From a virus (taxonomy: Duplodnaviria > Heunggongvirae > Uroviricota > Caudoviricetes), in IMG/VR virus record IMGVR_UViG_2778261668_000001: 33,994 nt of DNA; one strand, 5' to 3'. A program made the translations under genes and the position numbers. Below are positions 1,302-29,432 of the stretch, one piece after another. Position 1 is the stretch's first letter, and each line of letters begins with the position of its first letter. The notes beneath the pieces are model-generated. The model saw only the letters and a program-made list of their open reading frames with translations, had not been told where the DNA came from and searched no databases.

Positions 1302-1877
1302 CTACGGCAGTGCTGGCCATTCAATATCCTGTGCAGTTGACGTATCAACACGGTTCAGCAATACCCGATACTTTTTCCATGCTTCCAGCAACGAGATTTC
1401 TTCCTCCGTTGCAATTTCCAGATCTGCAGCATCCTGAAGTGGCGCAATATGCTCACTGGCTACCCGCATGAGGCTATTTTTTGTTTCTTCCGCTTCCCGT
1501 ATCCGAAACAGTTTTTCTGCTTCCGCATCCTTCACCCAGGTTGTGCCGTTCCACTTCTGATATTCCCCATCCGGCGACAACCAGGTGACATTTTCTGGTA
1601 ACGGGCCGAGTTCAGAAATAAATAACGCGTCCCCTGATGCCACGTCATAGACCGTTTTTCCCCTGTGGTCTTCAACGAGATGCCATGATGTATCCTCATT
1701 GTTAAAAACAGCCACGAAGCCAGCCGGAATATCTGGCGGTGCAATATCGGTACTGTTTGCAGGCAGACCTGTATGGGGTGGAATATATGCATCACCTTCA
1801 CCAATAAATTCGCCGGTTCCGGCCAGCAGATTATAAATTTTTATGGTCTGTGGATGTTCACTCATTATGAATGCCAT
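1302..1877 (-). CDS. tfa: Tail fiber assembly protein (Tfa)
   Basis: Conserved Tfa N-terminus ([44 protein letters not shown]); start overlaps the stf stop (TAATG). Confidence 0.85.
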
Positions 1878-4800
1878 TATGCAAGCCTCACAATATAGTT
1901 AAATGCGATGTTTTTGACGGTGTTTTCCGCGTTACCAACAGCGTTAACGGTGATGGTGTGTCCATGTGCACCCAGCGCCACAGTGTGTGCATGGGCACCA
2001 ATACCGACAGTATGTGCGTGTGCCCCTGCAGATGCGGCAGTACCAGACAATGAGTGGGTATGTGCTCCATCTGATGATGTCTTCCCTGATATACGGCTCG
2101 TACCTGAGCCAGATTCCTGTGGTACAACTGGTACGTTTGTGACTGAAACCTGGGTATAACCGTTAGGAAAGAGTGCAGTTCTATTAGAATTCGCATATGG
2201 TCCAGAACTCTGGTGTTGGTGCCCACCTGCACTATTTGCTGTCCCGCTAATACTATGTGTATGCGCCCCGGTGTTATTCGTGGACTTAGTACCATAATCA
2301 AACGAACTGGTTGTTTTCGTCCCCAAATCCGTACTGGATGCACTGGCACTGTGGGTATGCGATTTAATACCATCCTGTTCCTGAGACAATACAGCGCGAC
2401 CACTGGCGGGTTTGCCCTTAATTGTCCATCCACGCAGATCAGGGATCACACCAGATGGGTAAGCGGTTGCAAGTTTCGGATATGCTGATTTATCAAAAGT
2501 CTGCCCCTGCATCAGAGCATAACCAGATGGAATTGTGTCTGATGGCCACGGTATCGGTGCCCCTGCAGGATAAAGCTCTGAAGGAGGATAAGCCGTTGTG
2601 TAAAGCTGATCCCATAGCGACCAGTTTGCGTCGGTAGCATCCCGTCGTGAACGAATAAATGCCGGAGCATGGGCACCGCTTGTACCACTCCAGCCGATAA
2701 GCAATTCACCCTCTCCTGCAGCATTCGCACCTTTCATATGAAGCACATTGCCGTAAGTCGTGGGGTAGCCATTTTTATACGCTTCATACATCTGAACGCC
2801 TGGGGTGCCTTGTGTATTGCCACTTAATGCGGCCACCATACCTCTGGACACTAAGGTATTAATGTTGATGTCACCTGAGCCATCAAACTTAACACCATTA
2901 ATATTTACTGGCGTTTGAAGCTTCGTAGCCGTTGAAGCATTACCCTTAATGCCGCCATTAACGGTAAGCGACCCGGTTATTGTGCCTCCTGTTAATTTCA
3001 AAAAGAGTGCATCAATCCATCCAGCGAAACCCGGTTTATTGATATACAAGTTGCCATCATTGGCAAATATGCCACCACCTGGAGTTCTTAATGGTTGCGC
3101 CATATTTGCTAAAGTCAATGCACCGGACATTTGCCCCCCAGACAGAGGCAAGGCACCAATAAACTGATGCGAGCAGTAATAACCACGCCCCTGGTTAAAA
3201 TCAATTACAGTACGGGCATTTATACATTCAGTAGCAGGTTCTGTTACACCCCACTTATATGTAGTTTGACCTGCTGTATAATCAGTTGTCGGTACAATGA
3301 CACTTAACCCTTCCTCAGCAAATACTTTAATCGGAAAAGCTCTGGCCTCAACATAAAATACACTGCAAACATCATCATCTTTAGTGCTTGCGATAATTGA
3401 GTGAATAGACCGTTCCTCAGACTGATATGCCCAGAAATAACCCGCAGCATATGATCCTCTGTCCGACCAACCACCACTTGTAACGATGCCATTAAATTCG
3501 CAGTTATTCATGGGATCATTACCAGCATTCTGTCTTGTTGATATGACCACCCGGCTGGCAAGTTCATCGTTATATCCGGCTGAACGGCGCAATACAATCG
3601 GATACCATTTCCCGTCAACAACATTCGCTGGCGCAGAAAAGGAATACTTACGCATCCCCCTTTTTTGATCAACTTCACCTTTGCTGTAGACGTTAATGTT
3701 GCTCAGGAACCTATCTTTATCAGGTATATCTGCGCCGTTCTGGTCTTTCCGAAGGCGTGTTTCAGCGTTGTCGTATGCAGACTTGACCGCTTTCGGTGTT
3801 GCTGCAAGCGTCTCAGATTCGCTGCTGGTCTCACTGCTGAGCTGTACTATCCCCTTTTTCGTCGTGCTCGCATCCTCAAGCGCCACGGCAGATGCAACAT
3901 CCTCTGCCCGTTTTGCAGCTGTCTCGGCGCGCGTTGCCGCGGATTCTGCCGCATTTTTGCTCTGAGCTGCCTCCGTCGCACTTCCTGCCGCCTCTGTCGC
4001 CTTCGTGGATGCCGTTGACGCACTCTCTCCCGCCGCTGACGCCTGTCTGGTCGCCTCATCTTTTGAAGCAGACGCAGATGATGCCGATGACGCCGCCGAA
4101 CTGGCTGACGATGCGGCTGCCGTTTTTGAGGATTCTGCACTGGTTTCCGACGCTTTCGCGTTCGTCTCGGATGTCTTCGCTGCGGAAGCAGACCTCGCTG
4201 CTGCGCTGGCCTGTTCAGTGGCTTCAGTAACCTTCGTTGTAGCTGTTGAAGCGGACGATGCGGCGCTTTCTGCCGATTTCCCGGCGGCGGTGGCACTGGC
4301 GGCTGCCTCCTCTGCCTTAATGGATGCTTCACGGGCCGATGATGCAGCTACTGTCTCAGAGCCTGCCGCAGCTGAGGCGCTCTGTTCCGCTGCCGTTTCA
4401 GAAGACTTAGCATTCGTCTCTGACGTTTTTGCCGCCTTCGCGGAATTTCCTGCCGCCGTTGCCGAGGAGGCTGCACTGCTGGCGCTTGTGGAGGCGTTCG
4501 TTTCTGATGATTTTGCCGCCTCTTTGGAGGCAGCCGCATCTCTGGCTGAAGTGGCGGCTTCTGACGCTTTCGTCGTCGCAGTGGATGCAGAAGTGGCTGC
4601 TGATTGTTGTGACGCTGCCGCATTCGTTTCTGACGTTTTCGCGGCACCGGCACTGGTGGCCGCCGCGCTTTTTGAGGACTCTGCAGCGGCAGCACTTTTT
4701 GACGCTTCCGTGGCCTTTGTTGATGCCGTTCCTGCGCTGGAAGATGCTGACTGAGCAGACGATGCGGCCTGTTCGGCGGACGTGCTGGCTGCGCGTGCTG

Positions 4801-5251
4801 AGCCTGCGGCATCAGTCGCATGGGTTGCCGCCTCACTGGCAGATGTGCTGGCATCGCTGGCTGACTTCTTCGCGGCTGCCGTGTTCTGTGCCACTACGGA
4901 CGCGTTACGCGCCACCTCTTCCACCATCAGTTCAAAACGGCGCAGTGCCTCCGGACGGGCATCATCCTCCGTCATGGCACCGAGAAAATCATTCAGCGTC
5001 CCCGGCTTTGAATCCTCATACACGGTGATGGTCCCGGCATGTGACGGCGGGAATCCTTCCACCATCAGAATAACGCTGTACTGACCGTACTCAACGTCCA
5101 TGCTGTAACGCCCGGCTTCATCCGGATTTTCTGAGGCCAGCGTGTTCACCACGACCGTGGTACTGTTACGTTTTGCCTTCAGCTGAATGGTGCAGTTCTG
5201 TACCGGTTTCCCTGTTCCGTCTTTCAGTACACCTGAAATCTTTACTGCCAT
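1877..5251 (-). CDS. stf: Side tail fiber protein (Stf; StfR-like), about 1124 aa
   Basis: N-terminus [26 protein letters not shown] and C-terminus [18 protein letters not shown] match the Rac StfR type; long Ala/Ser/Thr-rich repeat block; His-rich HxH tip motifs ([22 protein letters not shown]). Likely ATG at 5249-5251; the ORF-track start at 5257 is GTG. Confidence 0.9.
3850..4880 (-). repeat. In-frame low-complexity Ala/Ser/Thr-rich repeat region of stf (SETNA/KTSET-type units)
   Basis: Reiterated nucleotide and peptide motifs; the long spurious ORFs on other frames and the opposite strand here are artefacts of this GC-rich repeat. Confidence 0.6.
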
Positions 5252-17577: not shown

Positions 17578-17848
17578 GATGTTACCGTAATATGTGAGTA
17601 TCCATCGACTAGACACTAAGCAAAAAAGCTCCCGAAGGAGCCTTCATTTTCACTTTCTTAAATCTAACGACAGACGGCTAACATTTAAGTATTGTGAAAT
17701 ATTATCAAATGTAATCATCATTGATTTACAAAAGATACATTTTGCCCCGAAAGGATTCCTGTCAGAAACATCAAAAGATGATGTTCTATACTGAGAACCA
17801 TGGCAACACGGGCATCTAAAGTGAATATGGTTTGTAATATTTTCTACC

Positions 17849-18061
17849 TCAAAGTGCCACTACATGAACAGCCGCGGGGCCTTTAGGTCCGTTCTCAATA
17901 CCAAATTCGACTTGCTGATTCTCAGTTAACGTTTTGAAATCGTTGCTCTGAATAGCTGAGAAATGGACAAACACATCTTTGCTACCATCTTTCGGCGTGA
18001 TGAAACCAAAACCTTTTTCAGGGTTAAACCATTTCACTAAACCAGTCATTTTGTTAGACAT
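17849..18061 (-). CDS. cspI: Cold-shock protein, CspA family (CspI-like)
   Basis: [38 protein letters not shown] with RNP1/RNP2 motifs; long AT-rich leader at 18062-18424, typical of csp genes. Confidence 0.9.
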
Positions 18062-18424
18062 TATTATTACCTTTTGAAGAAGTTAGCCCTTGGGCAGAAT
18101 GGTCCGAAAAAAAATATCAGAGAGAAAAACCAACAAGGAAATCTCAAGAGGTACAAATAATAAAATTATAACAATGACTGCTTCAGATAATTTTGTAACA
18201 AACCAGAACACCATTAACGCATGATTAACCAACCATAGCAAGGATTACTTTTGTAAAGAAAAACACACGAATGAAACAATAGCTTTATTTATTAATAAAA
18301 CGTGTCATTCTGTCTAATGACCTTTTATCTTACCCTTAAGATTTCAAGGATTTTGACTCATGGAAGAGTCCTTTTTATTTAAATTTCACATTCAGCGCTA
18401 AAAATAATCCGATTTAATATTAAT

Positions 18425-21016: not shown

Positions 21017-21297
21017 AATATTGTGGTACTTTTTGTGGGAGTCATCCACTTACGCACTTTGTTTTGCTATGCCAGCAGTTAGCTTCTGCTGTAAAACTAT
21101 TCATGCAGCAAACCTGCACTTCACCACAATGGTTAGCATACTTTTCCTGATTAAGTTATTGCCAAATATGCTGGCCATTGTTTCATGTATTGGACCTCCT
21201 TACTATTTATTAAAGAGATCCAATATTCACCACTCTGTCTGTATCTCCACTCAGGCATCAGCCTTCTTCGTTATCGTATACAGACAAACTATGAATT

Positions 21298-21513
21298 TTA
21301 ATCAGTAATTATGACATTTGCTGCTGCAGGACCTTTAGCACCACTCTCTACAGAGAAGGTAACCTTTTGACCTTCAAATAAGGTTCGAAAATTATCATTC
21401 TGAATCGCAGAAAAATGCACAAACACATCTTTACTACCATCAACAGGAGAAATAAAGCCGAAACCTTTATCAGCGTTAAACCATTTTACTAAACCAGTCA
21501 TTTTATTTGACAT
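21298..21513 (-). CDS. cspB: Cold-shock protein CspB-like
   Basis: [71 protein letters not shown]. Confidence 0.9.
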
Positions 21514-21813
21514 TCTACATTCCTTAACTTGAGCCTTTCGGCATAAATGGCTTGTATAACAGAAACGACTTCGTACTTAATTGGAGAGACTCAAAGAAGG
21601 AATAAGTGAATAACACCTGAAATGAGAACTGCTTTAGTAAACTACTTCGTATATCGTCTGTTCTTCAAACCGACGCAATCATTAACGCATAGTTGAACAT
21701 ATGAAGCAATGTTTATTTTAGACATCCAGCCATCTTCAACCCCATCAAAAAACTATAGCTTTCTTCAGGAACGTGTGTATAGTGCGCCCAGTTATCAGTA
21801 TTAAGGAATTTTT

Positions 21814-23207: not shown

Positions 23208-24203
23208 TTACGCCAGTACGCCTATTGCCAGCGCACGATCGATAAAACGAAATATCAGCTCCAGCTGGGAGCCATACTTCTCTTCAAATGCCACGGTATC
23301 CGCATGCAGCTCGTCGTGATGCTTTCTGCACAAAGGCAACACAAAAAGGTCATGCGCTTTTGTACCCATTCCCCCCTGACCGTGGCCTATCAGGTGGTGG
23401 GGATCATCAGCAGGTTTTCCACAACATGCGCACGGCTGCGTCTTAACCCAGCGCGTGTACTTTTCATTAACCCAGCGGTGACGTTTTGGGCGTAACATAA
23501 AAGACTCCGGCGACTCCGGATCCACTTTCAGCGCCAGCACCTTTTTCGCCTTATCCTGGATGATGCTGGTGGCAGGAACCGAAGGCACAAGGTCACTTTC
23601 CCGGGTAACAGACGGCACAACAGGCTTCGGTAATCTCAGTGCCTTACGGGCTGCACTTTCCGGTAAGGCATCCGCCAGATCATTACGAATCAGCCACCAG
23701 CACAGTTCCGGCATTGTCACAACATGACTGTCATCAAAACCGAGATCCCGACGCACAACAGACAACACCCAGCGGGCACAGTTATCCGTTGCCATTGATT
23801 CCAGCCGTTCCGTGAACTGATCGCGCAGCTGGTTATCGCAGTGCCAGCACAGACGGATTGCGCCCGGAGCGTGTCGCATTGCTGTCATGTTCTCGCTGTG
23901 CCAGTCGGAATGAGGCCACTGGCAGCCTTTTTCACGAAGTAACCAGCTTTCAAGACATTCCACGCCACCAGCACGACGGATCACTGCCTCATTGCGGAAC
24001 ACGGCCCGAACGGCAGGATCATCCGCCAGCGGTTGTGATGCCGCCGGAACGGCACCACTGGCGAAAGATGAATAACGTTCCGGCTCAGGCTCCAGCAGGA
24101 CACGCCCCTGCATAAACAAGGGCATCAGCTCTGAACCTGGTCTGAACAATACGATCCCCATACGCGGGGCAATTTCAGGGGTCAGTAGTGCTCTCACGGT
24201 CAC
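23208..24203 (-). CDS. DUF968 (YdfU-like) protein with HNH-like Cys/His cluster
   Basis: C-terminal CACCGKPADDPHHLIGHGQGGMGTKAHDLFVLPLCRKHHDELH; located just upstream of Q as ydfU is in Qin. Confidence 0.7.
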   Translation of the reverse strand: MTVRALLTPEIAPRMGIVLFRPGSELMPLFMQGRVLLEPEPERYSSFASGAVPAASQPLADDPAVRAVFRNEAVIRRAGGVECLESWLLREKGCQWPHSDWHSENMTAMRHAPGAIRLCWHCDNQLRDQFTERLESMATDNCARWVLSVVRRDLGFDDSHVVTMPELCWWLIRNDLADALPESAARKALRLPKPVVPSVTRESDLVPSVPATSIIQDKAKKVLALKVDPESPESFMLRPKRHRWVNEKYTRWVKTQPCACCGKPADDPHHLIGHGQGGMGTKAHDLFVLPLCRKHHDELHADTVAFEEKYGSQLELIFRFIDRALAIGVLA

Positions 24204-24204
24204 C

Positions 24205-25002
24205 TCAATGAACGGTATCGAGCAGCTTTAACAGCTCAGGGAATCGGGATTCGAAGAAATGCGGCTGCGTCTCGCGCGGATTTGCAGGACTGGTGATGTT
24301 CTTGCCGAACATGCAGCCTTTCGCGGTCAGCGACCAGAATTTTTTGATGTTGTTAATCGCGGTACGACTGTATCGTTCGCGTTGTTCAACGATCCCCAGC
24401 TTCGCCATCTGGTGATATGCCTGATTAGCCGTCAGGCGGATACCATACTGCTTCAGCAGTGCACTCAGCGACAGCGTGGGGCGACTTGAGCCATCGTGTG
24501 CATCAGCAGGAGCATCAATGGCATAGCGCGGTGCCAGATTCGGTAAGCCAACAGCCTCCTGGAGTTTCTGGCAGGCACCAAGCACTGAAGAGTTAGACAG
24601 GTTTAATTCCCGGCGCATAAAGTCCAGCAGAATCACACCAGCCTGCATCTTGTCAGCAGCCTGTCCGGATAATTTTTCCGGTGCGCTGGTTACCATGTCG
24701 AAAGTACGGATCACCTTCAGATGGAATGACGGGCTGATCCACATTGCATAGGCATACACCAGTTCTTTGCAGACATACGTCCCCTGGTTATTTCCGCCAC
24801 GAATAACGTTAACTGGCTCTATATTGACCGAGTTGCAAATCTGCAACTCGCTTATTAAACGCTCAGTTTGCTCATTGCGGAGCCAGAATGCAGGCTTATG
24901 CTTATCCAGAGAACCAGCAGCCCTGTGCAGATCGTTCAGGCTGTAACGCCCATAAGCATCACGACGAACTTCAATACCATCAATAACCATCAGATTATTC
25001 AT
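24205..25002 (-). CDS. KilA-N domain protein
   Basis: N-terminal KilA-N-like segment (MNNLMVIDGIEVRRDAYGRYSLNDLHRAAG...KPAFWLRNEQT). Confidence 0.7.
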   Translation of the reverse strand: MNNLMVIDGIEVRRDAYGRYSLNDLHRAAGSLDKHKPAFWLRNEQTERLISELQICNSVNIEPVNVIRGGNNQGTYVCKELVYAYAMWISPSFHLKVIRTFDMVTSAPEKLSGQAADKMQAGVILLDFMRRELNLSNSSVLGACQKLQEAVGLPNLAPRYAIDAPADAHDGSSRPTLSLSALLKQYGIRLTANQAYHQMAKLGIVEQRERYSRTAINNIKKFWSLTAKGCMFGKNITSPANPRETQPHFFESRFPELLKLLDTVH

Positions 25003-25021: not shown

Positions 25022-25411
25022 TCAGGCGGCTGCACCCGCCGTTTTCTCGTACTTACTGATAGTGATCTCGACCTTCCCTTCCGGGATAACCGGTCCCCAC
25101 TCCACCAGCATTCTTTTCACCTGACTGTCGTCTTCCCACACACCCGCGTGGGTCAGGGCGTCAAACAGCGCCTTGTTATAGTTGTCCAGATCGCGGATCC
25201 GGTTATCCGGAGGAAACAACACGATCTCCACTGAAGCAGGTGCCGACGTTGGTTTTGGCAAACGACGTAACTGCTCAACTATTGCTGCACACGCCGCGCT
25301 CTGGAATTTGCGCCCCGCCGCGCTTATCAGGCTCTTACCAGCAAACGCCCCTTTGTTGGGGTGTCGCCAGTACGTGTTCACGCTGGGCGGAAAAGGCAGG
25401 ATCAGCTTCAT
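25022..25411 (-). CDS. rusA: Holliday junction resolvase RusA
   Basis: PPSVNTYWRH...DLDNYNKALFDALTHAGVWEDDSQV resembles RusA; nin-region position. Confidence 0.8.
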   Translation of the reverse strand: MKLILPFPPSVNTYWRHPNKGAFAGKSLISAAGRKFQSAACAAIVEQLRRLPKPTSAPASVEIVLFPPDNRIRDLDNYNKALFDALTHAGVWEDDSQVKRMLVEWGPVIPEGKVEITISKYEKTAGAAA

Positions 25412-26061
25412 GCCACCATCTCCCTGACCAGTTTTTCTGCCTGCTGGCGAACCTGCGCCAGAAAGGCCTCACCACATGCCTCAAGTTCATCGCGCCCGAT
25501 GTAGCTGATTGCCGGTCCCTTCCAGGTCTTGTCAAAAACAGCAATAGCACCAGCGAAGAAAGCGCCTGTCGGCACCTGCTTCTCATCTTTCGGGATAAAC
25601 CAGGCAGGCAGTTCAAAACCAATACGCCCGCGAATAAAAGCAATATGGTCCGCATCTTCCGGCCACCACACTTCGCTGGTGGCAGCTTTGATCAGGAAAA
25701 CATAGCGCCCGCCCTTATCACGCATGGCACTGGCATGTTTCATGATGTAACGCATGCCGGTGATGTATTGCCCCTCATGCTGACTGGCGCGGCTGTATGG
25801 GGGATTACCAAAGGCAGCACCTTTAAGCTCCGCAAGACGTTCTGACCAGTCATGCGCCAGCGCGTTGTCTTCCGCAGTGTAATAAGCGGCACATTTGGCG
25901 TTATCACCATCAGTGAACAGATCCAGAACAAACGGGCCAAACAGGGTGTTAATTCCCCAGAAAATGTTGTCCGGCGTGCGCCACTGATCGCCCACTTCCT
26001 TCAGTTCATGGCCTGGTTTGTTCCGCAGCTCCACCAGCGCCTGGCAATATTTATTACTCAT
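25408..26061 (-). CDS. Phage orphan DNA N6-adenine methyltransferase
   Basis: FGNPPYS catalytic motif; start ATG at 26059-26061 overlaps the upstream gene stop (TAATG). Confidence 0.8.
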   Translation of the reverse strand: MSNKYCQALVELRNKPGHELKEVGDQWRTPDNIFWGINTLFGPFVLDLFTDGDNAKCAAYYTAEDNALAHDWSERLAELKGAAFGNPPYSRASQHEGQYITGMRYIMKHASAMRDKGGRYVFLIKAATSEVWWPEDADHIAFIRGRIGFELPAWFIPKDEKQVPTGAFFAGAIAVFDKTWKGPAISYIGRDELEACGEAFLAQVRQQAEKLVREMVA

Positions 26062-26555
26062 TAAGCCCCCACGTAATTCCCTGACAGATACCACTCTTCA
26101 CCCGATGCAGAGCGCTTGCTGCTTTGCCGTAAGCACCGCTCACGATGCGCCAGAAAATTGTTTCGTTCTGGCTGGGAGTGGCTTTCACGGAATGCCTCCA
26201 TCCACACCGTTGCGGCTCGACGGAATAAGCCCCTGGACTCCAGTTCTTCAGCCTGGCGGGTCAGGCACAAAATCACCCGGGGGTCGTTAGTGCCGACATA
26301 GAAATTACGCACAGGTCTGGTTTCACGAACTGGTTGTGGTTTCGGCTCCTGCGCTCTCTCAGTCAGGCGCGGGAAATGTCTGCGTGTATCTCCTTCACAA
26401 CGGTGAGCCACACGCCCACTCTGACGTAACTTGCTTGCTGACTGCAGAACGCGCTGCCGTGAGTAACCAGCAAAAGCATCCGCAATGTCTCCGGAAGTAC
26501 ACCCCGGATGGGCTTCAATGAATTTCTGAACGTCATTTAACAGACTCATGATCAC
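26061..26555 (-). CDS. Hypothetical 164-aa protein in the replication-module P position; no helicase-loader motifs
   Basis: ORF coupled to the O-like gene (overlapping stop/start); basic, no Walker motifs seen. Confidence 0.4.
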   Translation of the reverse strand: MIMSLLNDVQKFIEAHPGCTSGDIADAFAGYSRQRVLQSASKLRQSGRVAHRCEGDTRRHFPRLTERAQEPKPQPVRETRPVRNFYVGTNDPRVILCLTRQAEELESRGLFRRAATVWMEAFRESHSQPERNNFLAHRERCLRQSSKRSASGEEWYLSGNYVGA

Positions 26556-27493
26556 CCCCTGAATCCTGCCGGGATCTGGCTGTAGTCCACGTTGTCGTAA
26601 CTGGATTTGAAGTACGGGTCTTCGCGTTTTTCGGTGTACGTGCTTACGGACGGCGATAAGCGCAGGGAAAGCTCATCCCATTTTTCCCGCAGCTTCGACG
26701 GGCTGAGCACGTTACGGCACCAGAACGGATCGCGGCTGACGCGGCTGTACATCTCGCAGATTTGTTTGTGAGTACGACCATCCTGCACACACATCAGGCG
26801 AATTTCGTTTGCCCAGGCTGTCCAGTTCGGTTCTTTGGGACGAACCACCTCGCCGTCACATTCGGCAGCCTGCTCGTACAGGGCAATGATTTTTTTCCAG
26901 AGCCACTGTGCACAGGTCAAATCATCCTGCGTTCCCCACTGGCGCTTTTTAGGGCTGAATACAACCGCATCAGGATGGCGAGTTAAAAAATCCTGTTCAG
27001 CCGTCTGCGTGTCCGGTTGCGAAGCGTCCGGACGAGAAGGTTTTTTATCTGACGGATCATGTTTTGATTTTACTGACGGATCCCCGCCAGATTCTGACGG
27101 GTGAAAACCCGCTTTTTTGCCAGATTTCGACGCATCAAATTTTGACGGGTCAGATTTTGATGCGTCAGATTTTGACGGGTCAGAATCTGACAGTTGAGAA
27201 AATGCCGCTGCCTGAAGCTTCGCAACGTTAAGCTGATAAACATTCGACGCATTGCGGTTACCCTGGCGACGCGCCTTACGCGTTAACCAGCCTTCTGCTT
27301 CCAGCCGTGCGATAGCCGTTCTGACGGTACTCATCCCCGCGCCAATCTGACGGGCAATGGTTTCAATTGATGGCCAGCACACACCTTCGTCATTACTGAA
27401 ATCAGCCAGGCGGGCCATAATTGCCACGCTGGATAACTTCATGCCTGATGCAGCGCAACCATCCCATACATAGCCGGTTAATTTAGTGCTCAT
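26552..27493 (-). CDS. Replication initiator (lambda O-like) with internal origin iterons
   Basis: N-terminal winged-HTH-like domain, central repeat linker (DPSKSDASKSDPSKFDASKS) encoded by iteron DNA, C-terminal domain; SD GAGG upstream. Confidence 0.75.
   Translation of the reverse strand: MSTKLTGYVWDGCAASGMKLSSVAIMARLADFSNDEGVCWPSIETIARQIGAGMSTVRTAIARLEAEGWLTRKARRQGNRNASNVYQLNVAKLQAAAFSQLSDSDPSKSDASKSDPSKFDASKSGKKAGFHPSESGGDPSVKSKHDPSDKKPSRPDASQPDTQTAEQDFLTRHPDAVVFSPKKRQWGTQDDLTCAQWLWKKIIALYEQAAECDGEVVRPKEPNWTAWANEIRLMCVQDGRTHKQICEMYSRVSRDPFWCRNVLSPSKLREKWDELSLRLSPSVSTYTEKREDPYFKSSYDNVDYSQIPAGFRG
27066..27195. repeat. Iteron array (candidate ori) inside the initiator gene
   Basis: About 7 direct repeats, core (A)TTTTGAC(G)GGTCAG; three consecutive exact 15-bp-period copies at 27139, 27154, 27169; weakly AT-rich flank. 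Confidence 0.6.
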
Positions 27494-27502
27494 GACCGAC
27501 CT

Positions 27503-27841
27503 CTATTTCCCTGAATTTACGACGAAACTGTTCGAGCGGGCTGAAGCACTCATGCTCATAGCCTTCACGGAGGTAGATAACCCGTTGTGTTTCCGGCTCC
27601 CAACGAATGACTCTGACGGGTACTCCGTAGTGATCTTTGAACCAGCGGTTAACTTGTCGCAAAGGACTGTCTCCTTCTGCCGGTTGAAATCACCCACAGC
27701 CCACTCAGCAAAGCTGTGGGTTACAATTTCCCTGTCACCTGGTACATTTACTGCATAGCAATACTCCACCTTCGCTTTTCCACCCGGTACAGGAAGCGCA
27801 ATCAGTTGCGAGCGACGGTAGTGTGTTGTTAAACTGTTCAT
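27503..27841 (-). CDS. Hypothetical gene in the cII position with a frame conflict (possible frameshift, or two overlapping small genes)
   Basis: Frame A from ATG 27841 has a protein-like N-terminus and a low-complexity tail; an overlapping frame (27483-27662, TTG start after SD AAGGAG) encodes a protein-like 59-aa sequence ending inside the initiator start. Confidence 0.35.
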
Positions 27842-28389
27842 GCGTTAGTTTCTCCACAGTCACGACACGCCACGGCGCCCGGAGCTGCACACTCGCGGGC
27901 GTCACTACTTTCTGAAACGCAAAAGATTTTGTAGACCAGTGCTGCATGCTCCTGCAGCTTCGAAATTGAGAGGTACAGCTCATCGTTAATTGCTGTCTTC
28001 TCATGCGGTTCCACTACACCATCTTCAATTGCTGAACGAATCTGTTTTGAATAACTGCCGATCTGTTCAATGACCTCCAGCAGGCGTTGGTTGATATCGG
28101 CGTTGTCCACATCCTCGATGTCAGGAAGAGACACAAAGACGCCATTTGCAGACTGCGCCACAGCGTCAGCAATGAAGTGAGTTCCACCAGCACGTTGCAA
28201 AATCATTGCCCATCCCAGCGGGAAAATCTGATCGCCATCGGCACGAAGGCGGTTAAATAATGCGTTCTCTGTTACATCCAGCCAGTCAGCAGCTTCAGCG
28301 TACCCCCCCGGCAACGCTGCGATAGTTTTTCTGACAGCTTTCACGTACCACTCAGGCTGTTTTTCTACTTTCCAGTGATGCTTACCCAC
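27838..28389 (-). CDS. Early regulatory protein in the cII/YdaT position (183 aa)
   Basis: Directly downstream of cro with overlapping stop/start; C-terminal Cys cluster ([17 protein letters not shown]). Family guess only. Confidence 0.45.
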
Positions 28390-28642
28390 GGTTCACCTCC
28401 TGTTCCTGTGGTTTAAACCCATTCTGGTTTTGGCTAGATTGAAAACGTGCCGGATAAAGAATCTGCATTTCGCTGACTTCACCCTTAAAAAAATTGGCTA
28501 AACGTTCTGCAAGCTCGATAGATGGAATCTGCTCCAGCCTCTCAATACGACTCAACGTCGCTGGATTGACTTGAACACCCGCAGCAACATGCTGCAAAGT
28601 GAAACCATGCGCCTTACGCACATTTCGTAATGGTGATTGCAT
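28382..28642 (-). CDS. cro: Cro-like HTH repressor (XRE family)
   Basis: 86 aa with HTH (FTLQHVAAGVQVNPATLSRIERLEQIPSIELAERLANFF); divergent from cI across the operator region. Confidence 0.75.
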   Translation of the reverse strand: MQSPLRNVRKAHGFTLQHVAAGVQVNPATLSRIERLEQIPSIELAERLANFFKGEVSEMQILYPARFQSSQNQNGFKPQEQEVNRG

Positions 28643-28739: not shown

Positions 28740-29432
28740 ATGAACATAGGAAACCGAGTCAGACAACTTCGCCAAGCGAAGAACATGAAAATCGCCGATC
28801 TCGCTGAAGCGATAGGAGTAGATGCGGCGAACATCTCGCGCTTAGAAACGGGTAAGCAAAAACAATTTACCGAACAAACACTGAGTAATATTGCCAAGAG
28901 CTTAGGTGTTGATATTGCTGATCTCTTTACCTCTGCCCACAAAAGTAATACTGTATATAAAAACAGTAATAATGAGGATGTTGCGCAGGTGAAGGATGTG
29001 TTCCGTATTGAAATGCTGGATATCAGTGCCAGTGCGGGAAATGGCCTTATCCAGGGCGGTGATGTCATTGATGTGATTCATGCCATCGAATACAGAACTG
29101 ATAATGCTGTATCAATGTTCGGCGGACGACCAGCCAATCACATCAAAGTTATCAACGTTCGTGGGGACAGTATGTGTCCAACCATTGAGCCAGGAGATCT
29201 CATCTTCGTTGATGTCAGCATCAATCAGTTTGATGGTGATGGTATATATGTCTTTGGTTTTGATGACAAAATATACGTTAAAAGACTTCAAATGATTCCT
29301 GACAAACTGCTGGTGATTTCTGATAACCAGATTTACCGTGAATGGGGAATTACTAGCGAAAACGAACACCGATTCATGGTCTTTGGAAAGGTCTTAATCA
29401 GTCAGTCGCAAACCCTTAAGAGACATAATTAA
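28740..29432 (+). CDS. cI: CI-type prophage repressor (HTH plus LexA-like S24 peptidase domain)
   Basis: N-terminal HTH (VRQLRQAKNMKIADLAEAIGVDAANISRLETGK); C-terminal Ser-Lys dyad context (VRGDSMCPTIEPGDLIFVD ... IYVKRL). Confidence 0.9.
   Translation: MNIGNRVRQLRQAKNMKIADLAEAIGVDAANISRLETGKQKQFTEQTLSNIAKSLGVDIADLFTSAHKSNTVYKNSNNEDVAQVKDVFRIEMLDISASAGNGLIQGGDVIDVIHAIEYRTDNAVSMFGGRPANHIKVINVRGDSMCPTIEPGDLIFVDVSINQFDGDGIYVFGFDDKIYVKRLQMIPDKLLVISDNQIYREWGITSENEHRFMVFGKVLISQSQTLKRHN

Follow-up and report, generated by a model that had tools for sequence, protein, structure and literature searches.

The DNA analysed here, a stretch of 33,994 nucleotides (nt) recorded as IMG/VR virus IMGVR_UViG_2778261668_000001 (Caudoviricetes) and called the window below, carries a lambdoid prophage of the E. 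coli/Shigella SfII/SfIV/CPS-53 type, whose gene for a replication initiator of 313 amino acids (aa) contains an array of 15-bp direct repeats. The gene (26552-27493, minus strand) belongs to the O family and is of the yfdO / SfII_41 type. We propose that the array is very likely the initiator-binding region of the prophage origin of replication, laid out on the plan of ori-lambda, and that selection on the repeats would act on the DNA. It lies in the coding region for a disordered interdomain linker (residues 102-164) of a protein homologous to lambda O, in a gene that is colinear with the two characterised origins of lambda and phi80. The sequenced phages SfII and SfIV support this proposal in that both carry the module, SfII without any other replication gene.

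The candidate iteron array and its initiator gene

Tandem Repeats Finder delimited the array at 27121-27184, with a period of 15, 4.3 copies, 81% matches and the consensus CAGATTTTGACGGGT; an alternative with a period of 30 gave 88% matches. Four tandem iterons occupy 27121-27180, namely U1 (27121-27135, CAGATTTCGACGCAT), U2 (27136-27150, CAAATTTTGACGGGT), U3 (27151-27165, CAGATTTTGATGCGT) and U4 (27166-27180, CAGATTTTGACGGGT), and each consists of an imperfect palindrome, TGAY-NN-RTCA, and an A-rich spacer. The inverted repeats are 84-92% complementary, and the centres of U1 and U3 are mutually reverse-complementary. A degenerate fifth tandem unit, U5 (27181-27195, CAGAATCTGACAGTT), was recovered as a repeat-family copy at 27178-27200 (74%), and a detached iteron, U0 (27088-27102, CAGATTCTGACGGGT), agrees with the consensus at 13 of 15 positions. 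U0 is 33 bp from U1 and is, of all the units, the nearest to the A-rich block described below; a CAGAATCTGG element homologous to it was found in every subgroup-A relative. Two half-copies, CTGACGGATC, are present at 27049-27058 and 27073-27082. The initial annotation had counted seven or so repeats between 27066 and 27195, three of them at exact 15-bp spacing. A generous count gives about eight, the units in exact tandem number four to five rather than three, and the half-copy at 27049-27058 falls just outside that interval.

This is the sole array of its kind in the window. The exact string TGACGGRTC occurs four times in the 34 kb, always inside 27050-27181, and with one mismatch allowed it occurs 25 times, compared with 11.1 +/- 3.4 in shuffled sequence (0/100 shuffles reached 25). 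The units are in frame within the initiator open reading frame (ORF) and, as had been noted at the outset, are translated as a pentapeptide linker, the U1-U4 region encoding SDPSK/SDASK/SDPSK/FDASK. Three recognition units, a 10-bp TGAC-NN-GTCA, a 13-bp GTCA-N5-TGAC and a 9-bp CAGAWTCTG, were considered as candidates and dropped because the Providencia and E. coli versions keep different parts of the 15-mer. Between U0 and U1 there is also a small palindrome, CGGGTGAAAACCCG (27098-27111), which is weakly terminator-like on the plus strand, where a T-run follows it, antisense to the initiator gene; a scan for promoters and terminators showed no feature but this one, and it does not account for the array. 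The palindrome is kept in relatives, and in a Citrobacter locus (L086) both of its arms are altered (GAGGGT...ACCCTC). It may act as a hairpin or as a variant of the binding site.

The top PHROG match of the initiator was phrog_391, 'replication initiation O-like' (E=8e-136). In BLASTP comparisons, residues 70-277 aligned with residues 78-270 of lambda O (E=7e-26, 31% identity over 216 aa) and residues 169-278 with phi80 gp15 (E=4e-25, 36% identity; 35% by tblastn), and in a tblastn comparison with phage genomes the C-terminal domain of lambda O, which is the domain that interacts with P, aligned with residues 166-277 (39% identity, E=9e-18). Proteins named 'DNA replication protein O' in phages vB_EcoM-720R4 and SfIV are 100% and 99% identical to the initiator, and some relatives carry the name 'Replication protein 15'. 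An AlphaFold2 model built from 23 relatives shows helices with a beta-wing from residue 3 to 98, a linker without defined structure (residues 102-164; predicted local distance difference test, pLDDT, <50) flanked by two folded domains, and a confident helical domain over residues 167-280 that is followed by a disordered tail. The N-terminal winged-helix domain (residues 1-98; 27200-27493, minus strand) was recognized in this model, by Foldseek and by Pfam, and is presumed to be the reader of the iterons. Pfam HTH_36 matched the N-terminus with E=4e-11. The other families matched at E<=0.01 were GntR, HTH_29, PaaX, DnaD_N, RP-C and MarR, and the HTH_36, GntR and MarR matches all fall within residues 23-82. 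When the domain was compared with the PDB by Foldseek, MarR/ArsR-type winged helices were the only matches. The C-terminal domain (residues 166-281; 26651-26998, minus strand) was defined by its homology to that of lambda O and by pLDDT values of 82-94; sequence searches of the PDB, for which the protein and the family profile served as queries, and Foldseek returned generic winged helices only and no solved relative of this domain. A scan of NCBIfam gave no named family for the initiator, for ORF112 (the 112-aa ORF that precedes it) or for the P-like protein, the initiator having a weak PaaX match only.

The elements within the gene stand in the same order as those of the lambda and phi80 origins. 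The repeats occupy gene nt 299-406 in the window, 349-433 in lambda and 365-441 in phi80 (positions of the lambda iterons and phi80 gp15 sites being those of annotated records), and in all three genes an AT block comes next, with a related TCGTCCG... segment behind it and the coding region of the shared C-terminal domain last. In the window, the A-rich block (27041-27082; coding strand GATCCGTCAGTAAAATCAAAACATGATCCGTCAGATAAAAAAC) is a candidate DNA-unwinding element. The 30-mer of highest AT content in the initiator gene (73%) starts at gene nt 424, and by the same measure lambda has 83% at nt 447 and phi80 77% at nt 449. To the right of the block lies the conserved segment (27011-27040; coding strand CCTTCTCGTCCGGACGCTTCGCAACCGGAC), whose counterpart at the colinear place in ori-lambda and ori-phi80 is the TCGTCMGAGAATTCTGRCGAATCC segment. 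The A-rich block is kept across subgroups with different DNA-binding domains and different iterons, and it is therefore not the specific binding site but an element shared by these subgroups, standing where lambda has its unwinding tract. With these results the likeness to ori-lambda pointed out in the initial annotation was borne out, both in the homology to O-family proteins and in the colinearity of repeats, AT block, conserved segment and C-terminal domain with ori-lambda and ori-phi80.

Two GATC (Dam) sites, at 27055-27058 and 27079-27082, lie 24 bp apart within the CTGACGGATC half-repeats of the A-rich block. The Asp codon of the block is GAT, which creates GATC, in 19/19 cases compared with 116/229 elsewhere in the same genes (P=9e-6). 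The phage has its own Dam methylase gene two genes downstream of the initiator. Control of the origin by methylation at the two GATC sites would be a reasonable guess. In two relatives (L091 and L098), a methyltransferase gene directly follows that of the initiator. No DnaA box (TTWTNCACA) was found between 26902 and 27775, even with one mismatch allowed, and over the whole window the motif was not enriched (82 compared with 72 +/- 8).

DNA elements or peptide repeats

The spacings in the window are all multiples of 3 and in one frame, so that the window alone cannot separate DNA repeats from peptide repeats and it is the relatives that decide. The family was compared at 75 genome loci, one genome per species, and clustering of the N-terminal domains at >=50% identity gave twelve clusters across 77 genes. 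Nearly all initiators with this C-terminal domain had 3-9 direct repeats, at about residues 100-175. Each of the six large DNA-binding-domain clusters had its own repeat core and its own period, for example 15 bp in the cluster of the window, 23 bp in cluster 1 (core GGTCAAAATGA), 12 bp in cluster 2 (core CGCACATAA), 21 bp in the phi80 cluster (core CCGAAAACGG) and 22 bp in cluster 4 (core CGCGGAACC). Three classes of C-terminal tail, described below, are mixed within these clusters, and thus the repeats follow the DNA-binding domain; moreover, a period of 22 or 23 bp is incompatible with a repeated peptide. As a positive control, the same procedure recovered the annotated lambda and phi80 sites. 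Another 80 near-identical loci from viral contigs, all 313 aa and 99-100% identical, were useless for covariation and biased against length variants.

A codon test was made with nine loci that share the DNA-binding domain of the window (Shigella, two Pantoea, Citrobacter, four Providencia and one metagenome-assembled genome). Shigella aside, their proteins are just 52-68% identical to the window initiator, and the linker peptide varies among the nine (SDPSK, SVPSK, PDVSE and SEPSK). Serine was encoded by TCA or TCT in 94/113 cases in the linker and 64/186 in the rest of the genes (P=8e-17), and lysine by AAA in 42/42 cases in the linker and 99/158 elsewhere (P=6e-8), although the tandem units evolve in concert and these counts are therefore non-independent and inflated. 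The bias was present in every one of the nine loci. Synonymous sites are thus frozen across genera, which argues for a constraint on the DNA and not only on the peptide. In a sister subgroup with a different recognition helix (examples being L087-L092, L102 and the E. coli FORC_029 locus L165), the 15-bp units, TTGACCCSTCAA, can point either way, as TTGACCCCTCAA, which encodes DPS, or as TTGAGGGGTCAA, which encodes EGS.

A number of observations weigh against the array being an origin on the lambda plan, and the in-frame spacing and the concerted evolution of the units belong among them. A period of 15 bp does not correspond to a helical repeat, and no exact recognition unit could be defined. 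Phage_rep_O, the Pfam model of the lambda O N-terminus, had no match to the initiator at E<=0.01. The A-rich block is shorter and weaker than that of lambda (73% compared with 83% AT per 30 nt), and the minimum GC content in 60-nt windows is 0.43. Finally, the number of tandem units varies among relatives from 0-1 to about 9, and short forms of the initiator exist, such as P0018 (282 aa), P0034 (288 aa, 128 contigs) and P0069 (286 aa). In favour of an origin, the full-length 313-aa form dominates, with clusters of 5414 and 117 members, and shortened forms of 303, 287, 282 and 274 aa have 87, 6, 1 and 3 members, respectively; forms with 0-2 units are not rare in Salmonella and Klebsiella (P0034 and P0069). 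These forms retain the detached unit and both CTGACGGATC half-copies. Natural origins have 4 iterons in lambda and 6 in Stx phages, and in lambda two iterons and the AT tract are enough for unwinding and in vitro replication (PMC7466680). Variation in repeat number, which the initial annotation had held to speak against an origin, was therefore seen in the relatives but does not refute one, because two iterons and the AT tract suffice in lambda.

One other explanation for the data is that the repeats are merely coding, a slippage-prone Ser/Asp/Pro/Lys linker with no function as DNA, and that the origin is elsewhere. The frame and spacing of the units, the predicted disorder of the segment and the wide variation in unit number, with almost none in some relatives, would all fit this model. 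Such a linker would not be expected, however, to have synonymous positions that stay the same from genus to genus as the amino acids vary, palindromic units that occur in the sister subgroup in both orientations and so yield different peptides, or counterparts of 22- and 23-bp period at the same place in homologous initiators. Its position is, moreover, homologous to the characterised lambda and phi80 origins, and no alternative origin-like feature was seen in the window, neither a cluster of DnaA boxes nor a comparable array, and we consider this explanation very unlikely. It is similarly improbable that the units are initiator sites used mainly for control (autoregulation, roadblock, titration or handcuffing of the plasmid type) and are not the start site. 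An initiator with binding sites in its own gene might in principle regulate its own synthesis, the antisense-strand hairpin and T-run (27098-27111) lie within the array, and Stx phages are known to have additional iterons that are weakly bound (PMC7466680). On the other hand, the homologous sites of lambda and phi80 are the origin itself (PMC7466680), the A-rich candidate unwinding block directly adjoins the sites, as in lambda and phi80, and the module has no other candidate origin. Control and origin roles are in any case compatible and not mutually exclusive.

The array might also be the relic of a defective prophage, formerly an origin and now non-working, given that many E. coli copies have decayed, as in K-12 CPS-53, where yfdO is without its N-terminal domain and keeps the repeats. 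This seems most improbable for the window, where the gene is intact, the protein is the same as that of vB_EcoM-720R4 and nearly so as that of SfIV (100% and 99%), and a complete cI/cro/cII/initiator/Dam/RusA module is 97.6% identical to that of SfII.

Helicase recruitment and the initiator tail

If the array is the initiator-binding region of the origin, replication might start as follows. Derepression would allow transcription of the early-right operon (cro, the cII-like gene, ORF112 and the initiator gene), and the winged helix of the 313-aa initiator would then bind the 15-bp units, four or five in tandem and one detached. The nucleoprotein complex so formed would destabilize the adjoining A-rich block (27041-27082) with its two Dam sites, and the C-terminal domain together with the disordered tail would bring in the host DnaB helicase. 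As there is no phage loader of the lambda P type, recruitment would most likely take place via a DnaT-like peptide, through host DnaC/DnaB or the restart primosome. The placing of the origin in the region that codes for the flexible linker would also explain why the repeats are translated as SDPSK-type pentapeptides.

The gene next to the initiator (26061-26555, minus strand) encodes a protein of 164 aa that matched Pfam PerC over residues 100-151 (34.1 bits compared with a cutoff of 22.6) and phrog_1324, 'transcriptional activator'; RefSeq annotates its homologue as yfdN, PerC family regulator. The start of this PerC-like gene overlaps or abuts the initiator stop (junction GTGATCATGA). The protein had no ATPase motif and no NCBIfam loader match, and tblastn of the locus gave no similarity to lambda P, phi80 gp14 or DnaC. 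It had been remarked in the initial annotation that this gene shows no helicase-loader signature, which agrees with these results, and judged by its sequence the PerC-like protein does not load the helicase. Nowhere in the complete SfII genome is there a gene for a helicase, loader or primase, its initiator being the sole replication gene. Behind initiators without P there is usually a small protein, for example yfdN or DUF977, whose N-terminus resembles a winged helix (L095, L096, L100, L118 and L165) and which is often translationally coupled to the initiator, and the protein database contains a 477-aa initiator-PerC fusion (P0001). The small neighbour protein may have a role in replication.

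The terminal peptide of the initiator, SQIPAGFRG (residues 305-313; 26555-26581, minus strand), resembles the C-terminus of host DnaT. The initiator ends in ...VDYSQIPAGFRG and E. coli DnaT in ...SEPDSQIPPGFRG, with 8/9 residues identical (SQIPAGFRG and SQIPPGFRG). For the window initiator the match with DnaT is limited to the last 9 residues and alone has E=0.23. The tails of relatives, including those at L100, L101, L110, L115, L116 and L165, align with DnaT over 17-32 residues at 50-76% identity (pairwise E 4e-7 to 7e-5), and a profile of ten tails gave a match to residues 151-173 of DnaT (E=3e-5 on the scale of a proteome, Z=4300). The N-terminal and three-helix single-stranded DNA-binding domains of DnaT were not detected in the initiator, either with NCBIfam or in PDB searches with the protein and the profile. 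This DnaT-like tail probably explains the 'primosomal protein I' annotations.

Tails were set against partner genes at 77 loci. W-rich tails, the type of lambda O and phi80 gp15, had a lambda-P homologue as partner, and none of the 43 loci with an adjacent lambda-P homologue had a DnaT-like tail. DnaT-like tails were found at 13 loci, with an adjacent P gene at 0/13 compared with 43/64 of the others (P=5e-6). Three of these DnaT-tailed loci had a paralogue of DnaC (48-51% identity to the E. coli protein) that starts 2 nt past the initiator stop; the gap between dnaT and dnaC of the host is identical. A third class, the 'AWxxIW' tails (...AWxxIWxxAxEQ...), was present at about 15 loci and had neither a P-like nor a DnaC-like neighbour. 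These tails are mostly from Providencia, Proteus, Morganella and Edwardsiella (L091, L093, L096, L097, L117-L119, L122, L123, L133, L134, L139, L145, L149 and L150). At one DnaT-tailed locus (L115), a remnant of 53 aa that is 83% identical to phi80 gp14 lies at 4711-4869, ~1 kb downstream of the initiator, and could be a trace of module exchange.

We infer that the initiator tail acts as an adaptor peptide to the host loading machinery. A more general model, which we put forward only tentatively and think somewhat less likely to be right than wrong, is that the extreme C-terminus of O-family proteins is a swappable adaptor that chooses the helicase source, the DnaT-like tail (...IPxGFRG) allowing a phage that has an initiator gene alone to capture the host DnaC-DnaB or the PriA/PriB restart machinery directly; in such a model, W-rich tails may couple to a phage P-type loader. 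How DnaT recruits DnaB/DnaC has been stated in recent structural work to be unknown (PMC13377028; PMC4132743). If the model is true, the same peptide in DnaT would be the long-sought element with which the restart primosome brings in DnaB/DnaC, and a phage initiator-DnaC module may have been the ancestor of dnaT-dnaC. A protein with HTH_36 and a DnaT C-terminal domain was reported in 2017 in a different context (PMC5509034); our literature search found no description of DnaT-like motifs in phage initiators or of tail mimicry.

The locus and its relation to known origins

The early-right operon that carries the initiator gene is divergent from the cI repressor gene (28740-29432). At its head is the cro-like gene (28382-28642, minus strand; Pfam HTH_3), followed by the cII-like gene (27838-28389, minus strand; Pfam Phage_CP76 and YmfL), ORF112 (27503-27841, minus strand; DUF4222, phrog_1170, function unknown) and the initiator gene, and the SfII annotation has the gene order cI / cro / cII / ORF / initiator. 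Transcription from the equivalent of pR would be expected to pass through the candidate origin. The DUF4222 ORF between the cII-like gene and the initiator is conserved and has no lambda counterpart at that position. Beyond the PerC-like gene lie those for the Dam (N6-adenine) methyltransferase (25408-26094, minus strand; Pfam Dam, E=1.4e-45), RusA (25022-25411, minus strand), a KilA-N protein (24205-25002, minus strand) and a DUF968/HNH protein (23208-24203, minus strand). Shigella phage SfII is 97.6% identical across all of the 2.7 kb surrounding the array.

The initiator gene had matches in 3356/5426 complete E. coli genomes, with near-full-length copies in 1576, and carriers of the module include the serotype-converting Shigella phages SfII and SfIV as well as K-12 CPS-53. 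In the CPS-53 yfdO (locus L166, E. coli BW25113, 2501-3208), the N-terminal DNA-binding domain is gone and the repeat region, the C-terminal domain and yfdN are retained, which would leave an origin without its reader and fits a defective prophage. Rfam had no family at the initiator/array locus; matches at gathering level elsewhere in the window were two cspA thermoregulator leaders (17803-18208 and 21235-21674, both minus strand; 112.7 and 158.3 bits) and IS009 RNA (1336-1534, minus strand; 205 bits).

It is established practice to call repeats in an O-like gene a likely origin (PMC8022706). An intragenic lambda-style origin is an ordinary arrangement, and its presence in the window is well supported and not surprising. 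The SfII record has no origin annotated for the module, and in the literature we found no described origin for the SfV/SfII/yfdO family; 'initiator-solo' modules may already be mentioned where Weigel and Seitz classify the replication modules of phages. A loader-less phage whose initiator ends in a DnaT-like peptide is the less ordinary point. Definition of the origin would provide a handle for prophage-induction and marker-frequency studies and for ori plasmids, and would help to predict replication specificity in mosaic lambdoid phages. Of greater consequence as a lead is the loader-less module with its DnaT-like terminal peptide, since the mutual exclusivity of this tail and the P gene, together with the pairing with DnaC paralogues, offers a concrete and cheaply testable hypothesis, at the level of a peptide, for the recruitment of DnaB/DnaC in replication restart.

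As in ori-lambda, the middle of the initiator gene, which codes for the linker, contains the candidate origin, direct repeats that each have dyad symmetry are followed by an A-rich tract and a conserved segment, and the gene is in the pR operon behind cro and cII. Unlike lambda O, the window initiator has an HTH_36 N-terminus with no match to Phage_rep_O; its units are of 15 bp, in exact tandem and in frame, whereas lambda has iterons of ~19 bp at a spacing of 20-24 bp, and the A-rich tract is weaker and has two conserved GATC sites. There is also no P gene, and the W-rich tail of O (...NTDWIYGVDL) is replaced by the DnaT-like tail. The phi80 gene 15 origin, with four gp15 sites, shares the homologous C-terminal domain, the intragenic repeats and an AT block followed by the same TCGTCCGAGAATTCTGACGAATCC-type segment; it differs in its own iteron, GAAAACGGG at 21 bp, in its N-terminal domain, and in having a P-type partner, gp14, and a W-rich tail. 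Plasmid iteron replicons such as pSC101, P1 and R6K likewise have initiator-binding direct repeats beside an AT-rich unwinding element, with Dam sites in the origin in the case of P1 oriR. Their iterons lie outside the rep gene and act with DnaA boxes, whereas the array in the window is intragenic, has no DnaA box near it and belongs to an initiator of another fold and family. With E. coli DnaT (primosomal protein i), the initiator shares ...SQIP(A/P)GFRG at the extreme C-terminus, but the similarity is confined to the tail.

For phages P22 and L, putative origins have been assigned by inspection to repeats in gene 18, and these distantly related O-like proteins have, like the window initiator, their own repeats in their own coding region (PMC8022706). 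There, however, the initiator is paired with a phage DnaB-type helicase (gene 12), whereas the SfII-type module has neither helicase nor loader. The Eru replication types of Stx phages were considered and set aside as a counterpart, Eru1-3 being helicase/primase or DnaB modules and not initiator-only (PMC8044961); their description has no bearing on the repeats. Among the features of ori-lambda that can be tested in sequence, the candidate origin of the window has all but two, the P-type partner and the N-terminal family of the initiator.

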